Below are positions 28,401 through 34,400 of a stretch of DNA of 64,000 nt, piece after piece. The stretch lies in assembly GCF_057098645.1 (NCBI RefSeq), contig NZ_CM169472.1, one strand, 5' to 3'. Each line of letters opens with the position of its first letter. The stretch's first letter is position 1. The position numbers are program-made.

Positions 28401-31400
28401 AATCCCATTCATCAGGGTCTTTATCGCCGCCATAATCAAACAACAGATTAGTCACCATTGTGGTAACGCATTCCAGCAACACAACCTCATTCGGGTTAAT
28501 GTCTGCATGAATTAATTCATCAAGATGTTGCCAGCGCTCCACTGTGCGCCAGTGCTCCGGGCGGCCTTGCCGATGATGTTCTATCCGTGCAGCCATCTCA
28601 TCATCAAGGATTTGCGAGGTAGCGATATACAGAACCTGTGAAGAGTCCCCAATAAGCGCCTCTGCGTGGCGACTCTTCCCGCTCCGTGCGCCCCCCGTCA
28701 CCAAAATCATCATACCGACTCCTGATTCAAATGTATGATGGTATTCATTGAACAGAACAATGGATCCCCCACCGTTGCTGACCGCAAAACATTTACGCGA
28801 TTAATACTGCGCGTAATATAATTAAAAATCCAGCATTCTCAATCCATTACGAAATAAGATGGCATTACGGAATAGCCAGACTTTCTCGTGTTAACGTCCG
28901 ACAAAATGTGTCATTGACAGCGGTTTCTGTGGATTGACACATTTCATTCAGATAATGAATTAATGCTACTGCCGGACCAACCAGCAAACGGGCATTGTGT
29001 TCTGAAATCCAGGCTATTGATTCAACGTCAGCGACAGATCTGCGCTGTAAAAGAACTTGTAAAACAACGCAATAGAATTATCCGGAATGGTGGCGACTAT
29101 GCACTAGAACACCACAATTTCGCTCTCTCGGTAAGGCACTGTCACAGCATTCAACAGAATGTGACTTGCCAGATTTATTAGCGCCACCAGATGTTTAACC
29201 GGGTAACCACGACCCAGTCGGGGATATATTCCATCTTCTCGCTGACATCATCAAGAATAAAAAGGTTTATCACACTCAGAGCAACGTTCTTCAGCAGGCG
29301 GGATAATTCTTCAACATTTAAAAGATGTGTTATTAAAGGCATACAAACTGGACGTATTGTATTTTCTTTTGGTGGTTGACCTAAGGTAGCAGTTTATCCT
29401 GATGCGCTGAGATTTCTGTAATATCTACGTCAACATTCTCCTCGAATAGAAAATGCAGCCCCGGCAAGTGATTCACATTTTTTAACAAAACGTTGTTAGC
29501 GTGCCATTTTCAGAAGCTCTCCAAGAAAGCGAATTCTTTTCTCAAATTCTGCATTCTCAGACACAGCTTTCTACTCCATGGCAATGGCCCAAATACGAAG
29601 TTGCTCAGGATCATTAGTGGTGCTGAGAAGTTAAATAACCATGCGGAGTACCACTCGTCATCACGTATTTATATATCATGAAGCTATTGTTGTGTTTTGT
29701 ACATCAGTAGATGTATTCTGATATACTCCTTTTGCTAGACATAACCTTTCACCTGCTTGCAAAGCTTCTGTGTTCTGACATTGCCAAATTGTTGCAATTC
29801 TGTATCCAGCCTTCTTTCAGTCATAGCTTCGGGCCGCGATAAGACTCACTGATCTGACCCTGATTCCTCTTGCAGACTTTATAGACCAATTAAAATGCAG
29901 TTTCTGCAGGTCAACGTCTGACCATCATTGTCATCACTCTGGCCATTAGAGTAACCTTCTGCATTCATCCTTTTGTAAAAAGTTTATAGACTGGCCCCCT
30001 GAATCTCCAGACAACCAATATCACTTAAATAAGTGATAGTCCTGATACAAGTTTTTAGAGTAGTCATTAGTGAACAGATAATTGTTAACTTAGAACCAGT
30101 AAAATGCAAACGACGCACCACGCTGGGAAAATCGCTGCTATTCAGCAGAGTTTTGTACCGAGAATTGTGGCCAGCCACTTATTGCTCTCGCGTAAGCAGG
30201 TATCCCCATCGTTTACCAGTCCAGCACATCTTGTGGTCAGGCAGAAGAAGAGCAAACTGTTACTGGACTCACTGCATGCATGGTGGAGAAAAATGCCACG
30301 CTATCCAAAAATCCAGACTGGGAGAATGGTTCAGCTGTGTACTGAATCAGTGGGGCGCACTCTGTTATTACAGTGTTGACGGTCAGGCGGAGGCAGACAT
30401 AATGCCGCGGAAAAAGCCCTTTGTGCCATCTGTCTCGGAAATAAAAACTTTATGTTCTTCGGCGGCGAGCGCAGTGCACTGTTGTATGGGCTTATCGGCA
30501 CTTGCCTTCTGAACGACATTGATCCGGAAGCGTATCTGCGCCATATTCTGAGCGTACTGCCGGAATAACCTTCCAACCGTATTGATGAACTCCTGCCATG
30601 GAACGTAGTTCTCACCAATAAATAAGCATCAATATGATTCTCCATTAACGCTTACCTTTTCTCAGGCTATTTTTGCTTTTTTTTGCTTTTCCCCGCCACT
30701 TTATGGTGATTATCACATCAATATACATCGATAGATATTAACGTAACTGCAGTGAGGTGAAGCATGAAATTTGAACGCCATCATGAAATATTGAAACGAC
30801 TCAGTAAATTCGGTTCTGTAAAAGTATCCGATCTGTCCAATAGCCTCAATGTAACGAAAGAAACTATTCGTTCAGATCTTAATGAACTTGCCAGGCTTGG
30901 CTATCTGACTCGATGTCATGGCGGTGCTTTTATCGTCCTAGACTCGCTTGATACTATTGCGAAAAATGAAATCGCTTATGCGCTTGAAAATTATGATACA
31001 GCCCAGGGAATAAAAAAAGGCCACTCAACTATGAAAAGTCAAGTATGCGTTATTGGTTCGTTTAATGTTGATATCATCAGTTATTTGCCGAGGCTTCCCA
31101 CTATCGGAGAATCGCTTCTGGCAAGTAATTTTATATTTTCACCGGGGGGAAAAGGCTGTAACCAGGCGCTGGCAGCAAGCTTTGCCGATACTGATGTTTA
31201 TTTCATAACAAAAGTAGGTACAGATCACTTTAGTGATTATGCGATCAACTTTATGAATTCGTCTAAGATTTATAAAAGTATAATTTATCAAACGAAAGAA
31301 ACGCAAACCGAAACTGCCACGATCCTTGTTAATGAAGGTACTGGCGATAATGTTATTGCGATCTATCCCGGTGCCAACATGACAATGTCGTCCGATGAAA

Positions 31401-34400
31401 TAACTATTCAGAAAGAAGCGATTATTAATTCTGATGTCATACTTCTGCAGCTCGAAACAAATTATACCGCTCTGCAACAAGCGATCACATTGGCGCAAAA
31501 AAACAGTATCCCGGTCATTATTAACCCGGCACCCTATAATGATATCGTCAACGAACTTATTCAGGATGTTGATTATATCACCCCCAATGAAACAGAAGCT
31601 GGTTTACTGTCCGGCATAGACGTACACGATCTTGAATCAGCTAAACGAGCTGCAGAAGCTATCCACAATAAAGGGGTAAAAAACACGGTTATCACGCTCG
31701 GTAGCAAGGGCTCGCTCGCATTTGATGGCAAAAAATTCATTCATTCGCCAGCGTTTCCAGCGGTCGTTAAAAATACGGCAGGAGCCGGGGATGCGTTTAA
31801 CGGCTCTCTGGCATCAGGACTTGCGAAAGGAAAATCACTGGAATCAGCACTGTGTTATGCCAGCGCCTTTGCATCCCTAGCGGTGGAGACAAGCAATGCT
31901 TCCGACATGCCTGAACATGAATCTGTGATACATCGAATTCAGAGTATACATTATCAGCAAACTATTTTTACGCATTAAGAAGGGACAGAGAATGAATAAC
32001 ACCAAAAAATCACTAAAAGTGCTCTTTATTGGGGATGGATTTGCCCCTATATTTCCAGACATCTGTTATCACTTAACCCATTACAAGCCCGCTGCCGCAG
32101 ATATTCCCGTGGCGAGCGATAACCCAGCGCACTATGCGGATGCCATTCGTTATAATGCTCGAACGCCTCTGCAAGGTTCTTTGCTGCCGTTAACCCGTCT
32201 GGTTTGGGCATGATACTGATGTAGTCACGCTTTATCGTTTTCACGAAGCTCTCTGCTATTCCGTTACTCTCCGGACTCCGCACCGCCGTGTTCTTCGGTT
32301 CAAGTCCCAACATCCGGGCGAACTGGCGTGTTTCATTAGCCCGGTAGCATGAACCATTATCCGTCAGCCACTCCACTGGAGACGACGGAAGATCGTTGCC
32401 GAAGCGGCGTTCCACCGCTCCCAGCATGACGTCCTGTACTGTTTCACTGTTGAAGCCGCCGGTAGTCACCGCCCAGTGCAGTGCCTCACGATCACAGCAG
32501 TCCAGCGCGAACGTGACACGCAGTCTCTCTCCGTTATCACAGCAGAACTCGAACCCGTCAGAGCACCATCGCTGATTGCTTTCTTTCACGGCCACTCTGC
32601 CTGTATGTGCCCGTTTCGATGGCGGTACAGCAGGTTTTCGCTCAAGCAACAGCGCATTCTGGCGCATGATCCGGTAAACACGTTTGGCATTGATCGCAGG
32701 CATACCATCAAGTTCTGCCTGTCTGCGAAGCAGCGCCCATACCCGACGATAACCATACGTGGGCAGCTCTCCGATAACATGGTGTATACGGAGAAGCACA
32801 TCCGTATCATCAGTGTGACGACTGCGGCGGCCATCCATCCAGTCATCGGTTCGTCTGAGAATGACGTGCAACTGCGCACGCGACACCCGGAGACAACGGC
32901 TGACTAAGCTTACTCCCCATCCCCGGGCAATAAGGGCGCGTGCGCTATCCACTTTTTTGCCCGTCCATATTCAACGGCTTCTTTGAGGAGTTCATTTTCC
33001 ATCGTTTTCTTGCCGAGCAGGCGCTGGAGTTCTTTAATCTGCTTCATGGCGGCAGCAAGTTCAGAGGCAGGAACAACCTGTTCTCCGGCGGCCACAGCAG
33101 TAAGACTTCCTTCCTGGTATTGCTTACGCCAGAGAAATAACTGGCTGGCTGCTACACCATGTTGCCGGGCAACGAGGGAGACCGTCATCCCCGGTTCAAA
33201 GCTCTGCTGAACAATTGCGATCTTTTCCTGTGTGGTACGCCGTCTGCGTTTCTCCGGCCCTAAGACATCAATCATCTGTTCTCCAATGACTAGTCTAAAA
33301 ACTAGTATTAAGACTATCACTTATTTAAGTGATACTGGTTGTCTGGAGATTCAGGGGGCCAGTCTATCTGGAGATTCAGGGGGCCAGTCTAAGATGTCCT
33401 TACCCTGCGCCATCTGCAGCTTCTGCACCAGAACCGGTGAATCTCACTCAACAGGCTTCATTTCCCCTGACGCCAGCCTGAATACAGCTGGCGTTTTCAT
33501 TTATAAACAGAAAGGAAAACCGATAATAATGGAATGGACGCCCCGACCATGAAGCAACGGTAGGATATTACTGATAAACCTTCCAGTGGAGGTGCGTTAT
33601 GGCCGTTTTAACGATTAGCATTGACCTGACAAAAAATGAATTCCAAATCCACGGTCTGGGTAGGAACAGAAAAATCTAAGCTCAGAAAACGGATTAAAGT
33701 AAGCGTCAACGGAGCACCGTATTGACGCTTATTTATTGGTGAGAACTACGTTCCATGGCAGGAGTTCGTCAACACGGTTGGAGGGCCATTCCGGCAGTAT
33801 GCTCAGAATATGGCGCAGATACGCTTCCGGATCGATACCGTTCAGACGGCAGGTGCCTGCTTTTCCGGCAACAAGCAGGAATCTCAGTGCTGAAGCAGGA
33901 ATTAGAGGTAAAAACGCCCTACCGGGCCATGAATCACCCGGTCATTGGAGTAGTAACCAAAGCAGATTTAGCCAGCATGGAACAAATATCTTTGGTGAAA
34001 AGTTGGTTACGGGAAGCTGGAGCGCACAACGTGTTAGTAACCAGTGCAGTTAATAACAATGGAGTTACAGAACTTTTTGCCTTGCTGCATACAGAAGAAG
34101 GCTGTTGTTAATTTCGATTGGTTCTCAGATGAGAATGATGACGGTGATACACAGATAAGAATCAATGAGCAATGAGGGTTGCCGGGCAACCCTCATTGAA
34201 TAAAACGGGAATTACTTCGCTTCGCCGTTTTTCATTTCGCCCATAGCTTTCAGCTTTTTGGAGATATCGCGGCGTTCTTTGGAGAGCTCGGCATTTTTGA
34301 TGATGTAATCGTCAACGCGATCTTCATAGTCACCTTTCATGCTGGCGATGATGCCCTGGATTGCTTCAACGCTCATCCCAGGCTTGATGTAATCGCTCAG

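Follow-up and report, generated by a model that had tools for sequence, protein, structure and literature searches.

A proposed IS2-associated loss of island DNA beside passive IS66-family relics in the cobU–yeeX interval of Escherichia coli O145:H28

How was a genomic island lost from a chromosomal site that is filled in other Escherichia coli strains, and did the paired transposase fragments now lying there take part? The question is raised by positions 29987-33900 of a 64,000-nucleotide stretch of an E. coli chromosome (contig NZ_CM169472.1, RefSeq assembly GCF_057098645.1), the whole of which is called the window below. A preliminary description of this segment spoke of a graveyard of insertion sequences (IS) in which two inverted IS66-family fragments would permit inversion or deletion, and which might record how a larger element was lost. 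The graveyard is a fair description, all five elements that it named being present; judged by its sequence, the segment holds what appear to be dead pieces of at least five insertion sequences (IS4, an IS2-like element, the 3' end of an unnamed IS66-family element, the 5' end of an IS110-family element and the 3' end of ISEc23) together with one live IS2. A CP4-44-like element was indeed lost here, but the loss is recorded by the IS2 and not by the IS66 pair. We regard the interval between cobU and yeeX as a decayed island-integration site in which the loss was, in all likelihood, associated with IS2, the IS66 pair being passive.

The window comes from the O145:H28 lineage. Its positions 10000-29986 (20 kb on the left) and 34200-59000 (25 kb on the right, with the his and O-antigen region) are 100% identical to complete O145:H28/NM genomes such as RM9872 and FWSEC0002; cobT-cobS-cobU lie on the minus strand up to 28713, and yeeX(tmaR)-yeeA-sbmC-dacD start at 34212. 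The identity of the flanks and these neighbours place the segment in the cobU–yeeX interval, which is the site of the cryptic prophage CP4-44 in K-12 and has been reported to be occupied or empty according to the strain (PMC3032704).

Missing DNA and sister alleles

Comparison of the interval with that of the sister strain C325 traces the island loss to the ends of the IS2. C325 shares the flanks of the window, including the O145 region at 100%, and has a full interval of 29.5 kb. This contains, in order, a truncated IS66 (IS66'), a PfkB gene, a glutamine amidotransferase (GATase) gene, a DMT transporter gene, a phosphotriesterase-like gene, further IS debris, a full IS66 and a CP4-44-type island, the last with GTPase, dynamin, RdcB and patatin genes and then yeeS, yeeT, cbeA, cbtA and yeeW up to a truncated DUF957 gene (DUF957'). 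Window positions 30125-32035 are 99.95% identical to C325 and positions 33391-35000 are 100% identical, and 25,470 bp lie between the two in C325 alone. In the window, an IS2 and a 25-bp tip stand in for these 25,470 bp, which run from GATase codon 15 to the tail of DUF957'. Both breakpoints are exact to the base: 32035/32036, at the right inverted repeat (IRR) end of IS2, and 33391/33392, at the outer tip. The features that meet there are the following.

31992-32035, plus strand: GATase stub, the first 14-15 codons (44 bp), cut by IS2
32036-33366, minus strand: intact IS2 of 1331 bp, with the IRR at 32036 and the left inverted repeat (IRL) at 33366; orfB at 32047-32952, orfA at 32910-33275
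33367-33391, minus strand: second exact copy of the outermost 25 bp of the IS2 IRL, a direct repeat in tandem with the element's own tip
33392-33528, plus strand: right-hand tail of the CP4-44-type island, recognized by a DUF957 fragment annotation; 3' end of the DUF957 pseudogene to 33440, then the conserved island end

At the point where IS2 cuts the gene in the window, the GATase reading frame of C325 and 2018-05-5CC runs on to 252 amino acids. From 33391 onward the window agrees fully (100%) with RM9872 and C325 and to 99.6% with K-12, and island-type similarity ends at about 33528; a blastn search of plasmids with 33441-33699 found nothing beyond the same locus and island ends.

The element at the junction was correctly delimited in the preliminary description, which overlooked the adjoining 25-bp tip. 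It is 99.6% identical to the K-12 copy IS2F, and its length and imperfect terminal repeats (IRR TGGATTTGCCCC..., IRL TAGACTGGCCCC...) are those expected for IS2. Both open reading frames give full-length matches, above the cut-offs, to the NCBIfam models specific for IS2 (PRK09413, TnpA, 275.8 bits; PRK09409, TnpB, 727.6 bits), orfA and orfB overlap, and an AAAAAAG motif of the A6G slippery-site type lies on the minus strand near 32951-32957. The DDE transposase of IS2 is carried by orfB. A 5-bp target duplication around the window copy is absent, the left flank being GGGGA and the right flank TCTGG at the inner tip or AGATG at the outer tip. With differing pentamers, the arrangement is no simple insertion; since the lack of a duplication is expected after a rearrangement, it is no argument against the identity of the element.

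Based on these data, we infer an IS2-mediated deletion from an ancestor with an interval of about 29.5 kb like that of C325, for which two routes would lead to the same end product. In the first, an IS-adjacent deletion would have started from one end of a resident IS2, as for IS3-family elements in enterohaemorrhagic E. coli (EHEC), where such deletions, in the presence of the IS-excision enhancer (IEE), range from a few nucleotides to more than 40 kb (PMC9943667; bioRxiv 10.1101/2023.06.07.543989). In the second, two directly repeated IS2 copies would have undergone homologous recombination. The extra tip would derive from an earlier IS2 insertion into the IRL of the resident IS2, leaving 20 bp plus a 5-bp target duplication (TCTGG), and from subsequent collapse of the tandem pair. 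The IS629 and other IS3-family deletions of EHEC with IEE (Kusumoto et al. 2011, cited in PMC9943667) likewise have an IS3-family element at the junction, tens of kilobases missing and no target duplication. The lineage of the window is itself EHEC-related, and its sister C325 has an IS629 with an adjacent loss at the same locus. The parallel is limited in that the element here is IS2, for which recombination between two copies yields the same product.

Several observations weigh against this proposal. The exact allele of the window is absent from the 5,426 complete genomes in which alleles and junctions were searched, a collection without the source genome, and IS2 lies at either breakpoint in none of them; no intermediate was found, and neither the order nor the number of events can be reconstructed. 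C325 is an imperfect ancestor, having suffered an IS629-associated loss of its own. That the 25-bp tip arose by nested insertion is no more than a model, and a mobile IS2 variant of 1356 bp would give the same pictures.

An allele unique among 5,426 genomes also invites the suspicion of an assembly artefact, in which two IS2 copies around some 25 kb were collapsed and the tandem tip is an error, and repeats of the IS2 type are classic collapse sites. However, the tandem tip recurs in complete genomes that other laboratories obtained independently, and the junctions in the window are clean to the base, whereas a collapse normally breaks a contig rather than joining unique flanks. We consider an artefact extremely unlikely. 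Slightly more room must be left for import of the short allele from another E. coli lineage by homologous recombination, that is, for allelic replacement instead of a deletion within O145. Positions 26162-32035 are nearly identical to the unrelated strain 2018-05-5CC (3 mismatches), and the cobUST flank is too conserved to reveal where such a recombination would have ended. Yet the IS2 junctions that the donor must have had were found in no genome of the collection, and C325, with flanks of the O145 type, already has the PfkB segment at 99.95%, so that no import is needed. This gives allelic replacement an outside chance. A related candidate, in which the window would be a mosaic with a recombination junction at the IS2, was dropped on finding the PfkB segment of C325 inside the same lineage.

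The IS2-associated deletion that we favour is one of several rearrangements at this locus. In RM9872, 13 kb are missing, from position 46 of the IS2-like relic into an IS66 tnpC gene (L008 6410-6454 and 6452-12873), and C325 carries IS629 in place of 505 bp (window 29620-30124; L010 29192-30499). At least three cobU–yeeX alleles, of 4.2, 16.5 and 29.5 kb, therefore exist in one clonal lineage of Shiga toxin-producing E. coli (O145), each made by a different event involving an insertion sequence. Taken together, the RM9872, C325 and window alleles indicate that IS-linked deletions recur here and that the locus is a hot spot of rearrangement.

The IS66 pair

The two IS66-family pieces that had been thought to shape the locus are remnants of the 3' ends of two elements.

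30229-30658, plus strand: IS66-family 3' end, with a frameshifted tnpC C-terminus and the right terminal repeat ending ...CGCTTAC; identified by profiles, by alignment to ISEc23 and by an annotated 'IS66 family transposase' pseudogene of the Prokaryotic Genome Annotation Pipeline (PGAP)
33699-33857, minus strand: 3'-terminal 159 bp of ISEc23 (IS66 family), the K-12 pseudogene yoeD; identified by alignment to ISEc23, by Pfam and by mapping to K-12

The family assignment of both pieces and the inverted orientation of the second agree with the preliminary description; their limits do not. The left piece, given before as 30440-30633, is over twice as long, and the right one, given as 33721-33900, ends at 33857 and is followed by a PduV/EutP fragment, a breakpoint (33857/33858) set by comparison with strain C288. 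Against the final 445 bp of ISEc23, which was the closest intact element observed, the left piece (the last 430 bp of its element) shows 83.6% identity, and it matches NCBIfam transpos_IS66 (E=5.6e-10, model positions 270-385) and Pfam DDE_Tnp_IS66_C (51.5 bits against a cut-off of 30). The right piece scores 58.6 bits against the same Pfam cut-off of 30 and is 96% identical to the full-length ISEc23 of C288 and NR1441. The GTAAGCG terminus of the family lies at 33700-33706 in the right piece and, as its reverse complement, at 30652-30658 in the left piece, and both ends align with the terminus of ISEc23. The junction of the left IS66' with PfkB occurs in 1,796 of the 5,426 complete genomes; the right piece is common to K-12, O157:H7 and O145.

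Full-length ISEc23 copies lie near the site of the yoeD-type fragment in C288 (L006 6890-9423) and NR1441 (L007 3900-6423). In C288 the ISEc23 end is 113 bp from the IS110 stub, so this full-length copy is not simply the uncut ancestor.

The pair does form the imperfect inverted repeat around about 3 kb that had been noted: the two pieces align with each other over 162 nt at 89% identity (arms 30497-30658 and 33696-33857, 3037 nt apart; BLAST E=5e-56), with longest identical blocks of 41 and 33 bp. Because the left piece is 83.6% and the right piece 96% identical to ISEc23, and the two are 89% identical to each other, they must stem from different IS66-family elements. Both lack the outer side, and the surviving terminal repeats face each other; with only 430 and 159 bp remaining, the pieces are unable to move.

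Could such arms nevertheless have served as recombination substrates that inverted or deleted the 3 kb between them, and so record a loss of the CP4-44 type? The repeat itself is real. Blocks of 41 and 33 bp are near the minimum length for RecA-dependent exchange. Inverted repeats, however, cannot delete the DNA between them, and the deletion breakpoints lie at the IS2 ends, outside the arms. For inversion, a synthetic junction through the IS66 arms was searched against the 5,426 complete genomes and matched no inverted allele, although 1,796 of these genomes have the left fragment; the sole high-coverage matches were full-length ISEc23 copies at the site of the right fragment, at about 90% identity, and inversion through the arms was rejected on this result. 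In these genomes the segment is thus found in one orientation only; it has arms of 89% identity and contains no recombinase gene, in disagreement with an invertible segment. Moreover, strains that retain the accessory DNA carry the pair in the same places: both pieces surround about 5 kb of cassette and island remnant in F11 and about 27 kb in C325, and K-12 keeps the right piece (yoeD) with CP4-44 intact. This makes the pair older than the island loss and not its cause, and a role of the arms in that loss is very unlikely.

The inverted IS66-family ends around cargo in F11 and C325 are also reminiscent of a composite transposon that would have delivered the PfkB–GATase–DMT–phosphotriesterase cassette. 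Such a transposon has two near-identical complete copies and functional outer ends. Here the copies are 89% identical and from different elements, the surviving terminal repeats point inward, and the outer ends needed for mobility are gone. In addition, the bracketed DNA of F11 and C325 includes the unrelated CP4-44-type island, and the right copy lies inside the IS110-family stub. We give a composite origin scarcely any chance. The IS66 pieces are independent old relics, passive scars that bound accessory DNA in many E. coli.

A tandem IS2 tip at several loci

The extra 25-bp tip is lacking at this site in C325 and RM9872, but three unrelated loci in four further complete genomes have an IS2 end with the same 25 bp. 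At two of these three loci, perfect 5-bp duplications (AAAAC and ATAGT) surround the whole 1356 bp. The copies elsewhere belong to another sublineage, about 96% identical to K-12 IS2, whereas the window copy is of the K-12 type, and a 23-bp version of the tandem tip is present on plasmid pLKJULY7989. In all, the tip is known from five independent sites, of which three have no target duplications, and from no fewer than two sublineages of IS2 (window 33342-33391; L011, L012 and L013, each at 515-1870; L018 215-1568). Its presence on differing sublineages and at differing loci indicates that it arose more than once or spread between copies.

This distribution points to repeated IS2 insertions into the element's own left end. 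The arrangement of 20 + 5 bp or 18 + 5 bp would be best explained, as a model, by an IS2 insertion that duplicated 5 bp of a resident IRL, followed by collapse of the tandem pair through recombination. As the extra tip would be only part of a functional end (Lewis et al.), an origin in place is weakly favoured over movement of a 1356-bp unit. At the ecpD site of strain 33-6, IS2 is present in just the two genomes with the tandem tip, and no normal 1331-bp copy is available for comparison. An exact 44-mer of the tandem tip had no match in metagenome_contigs or genome_contigs, and no tandem intermediate was observed.

Insertion into or next to their own inverted repeats is a property of IS30 and IS911. 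The tandem tip of 25 bp, once 23 bp, would fit such an event, and our literature search found no description of IS2 tandem dimers or of the corresponding IS2 case. One could go further and suppose that the IRL holds a preferred IS2 target about 18-25 bp from the tip, that nested insertions recur and collapse to a tip of 23-25 bp, and that the transient tandems might promote rearrangements such as the 25-kb loss; we hold this to be possible but doubtful. At their left ends, several IS2 copies in other genomes (L014, L016 and L017) adjoin host DNA similar to the IS2 tip, such as CTGGGGATTCAG and GCTGTAGATTCA, which hints at a target preference of IS2 for inverted-repeat-like sequences in a sample that was selected by BLAST for similarity and is therefore biased.

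Remaining contents of the interval and significance

Between cobU and yeeX, the following features complete the inventory.

28865-29008, minus strand: cobalamin-biosynthesis (cbi) gene remnant beside cobU, after the RefSeq annotation of the identical stretch in 2018-05-5CC (L002 8166-8309); outside the segment under study, in the same decayed interval
29017-29205, minus strand: IS4-family transposase fragment, after the RefSeq annotation in 2018-05-5CC (L002 8318-8506), F11 and RM9872, 100% identical to the window
29987-~30200, plus strand: IS2-like relic, IRL tip and 5' part of orfA, by alignment to IS2
30764-31978, plus strand: intact gene of 404 amino acids, whose product joins a DeoR-type helix-turn-helix domain to a PfkB/ribokinase-like kinase (Pfam HTH_DeoR at residues 5-56, PfkB at 92-382)
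33589-33699, plus strand: probable IS110-family transposase N-terminal stub, 26 codons and then another frame, cut by the ISEc23 end
33858-34111, plus strand: PduV/EutP GTPase C-terminal fragment, K-12 yoeF, a relic of the lost pdu operon (Pfam PduV-EutP 50.8 bits; TIGR02528 E=2.7e-11)

The cbi remnant and the IS4 fragment occupy the space between cobU and the IS2-like relic. The latter had been drawn from 29987 to 30390; it does start at 29987 but ends at about 30200, and 30229-30390 already belongs to the left IS66 piece. Its first ~55 bp are identical to the IS2 IRL, including 25 bp that are the exact complement, in inverted copy, of the IS2 tip; beyond them, identity to IS2 is about 83%, with an internal gap of 33 bp. 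The relic is thus chimeric, with 29987-30042 identical to modern IS2 and 30043-30200 at ~83%, and the form seen in the window could have arisen by gene conversion from a real IS2 or by recombination between the two. The version of K-12 and F11 is shorter and more degenerate, its tip included, and is fused to the truncated receptor gene yoeA (yoeA'); in RM9872, of the O145 lineage, only the first 45 bp are left. Perfect inverted 25-bp copies of the IS2 left-end tip (29987-30011 and 33367-33391) bound a block of 3,405 bp in the window. This is probably a coincidence, because the IS2 left end has been reported to be inactive as a donor in the first transposition step (PMC3299598).

The IS110 stub, previously placed at 33589-33669, extends to 33699. 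Its peptide and annotated IS110 transposases align in step over their first 33 residues, both starting at residue 1 (17 of 33 identical, single-comparison E=1e-08, one frameshift needed), and in these transposases the DEDD_Tnp_IS110 domain begins at residue 6; Pfam and NCBIfam profile searches of the 31-32-residue pieces gave no match. The DeoR–PfkB protein matches the ribokinase model TIGR02152 with E=2.4e-83, a score under the cut-off of that model. Its gene is the first of the cassette with GATase, DMT transporter and phosphotriesterase-like protein, which is complete in C325 and 2018-05-5CC and truncated by IS2 here.

Elsewhere in the window, a type VI secretion VgrG gene lies at the start (355-2508), and an IS629-type IS3-family element at ~8131-9440, with an ALIL pseudoknot at 8467-8583, interrupts a yeeJ-like inverse autotransporter adhesin gene (5252-8134 and 9469-14640). 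Three tRNA-Asn genes, the small RNA STnc240 and the his leader (20977-25284, 42390-42464 and 45204-45327) are, like the VgrG gene, ordinary for the region.

The closest known counterpart is the K-12 CP4-44 region with its pseudogenes yoeA::IS2F, yoeD and yoeF, at the same site from cobU to yeeX/tmaR, where yoeD corresponds to the right IS66 piece of the window and yoeF to the PduV fragment. K-12 also has an IS2-like relic, downstream of yoeA. Unlike the window, K-12 keeps CP4-44 (flu, yeeR-W), and its IS5 and IS2 are placed differently; neither the left IS66 fragment nor the PfkB cassette is present there. The window, for its part, has lost the island and yoeA. All components thus come from known families: the right-hand relics are annotated K-12 pseudogenes, and PGAP annotations of the left-hand relic and of the cassette exist in many genomes.

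IS-associated deletion at cobU–yeeX is a familiar process, and what we describe is ordinary genome decay and no new system, the 4.2-kb allele being a strain-level polymorphism. What the strain has lost is most of a sugar-kinase/amidotransferase/transporter cassette, as well as a CP4-44-type island with its toxin-antitoxin pair. The alleles of the interval are useful as a lineage marker and have little importance beyond strain typing. They are also a reminder that pairs of relic insertion sequences are not necessarily active recombination substrates, and those who study IS3-family transposition may find the recurrent IS2 tandem tip of interest.

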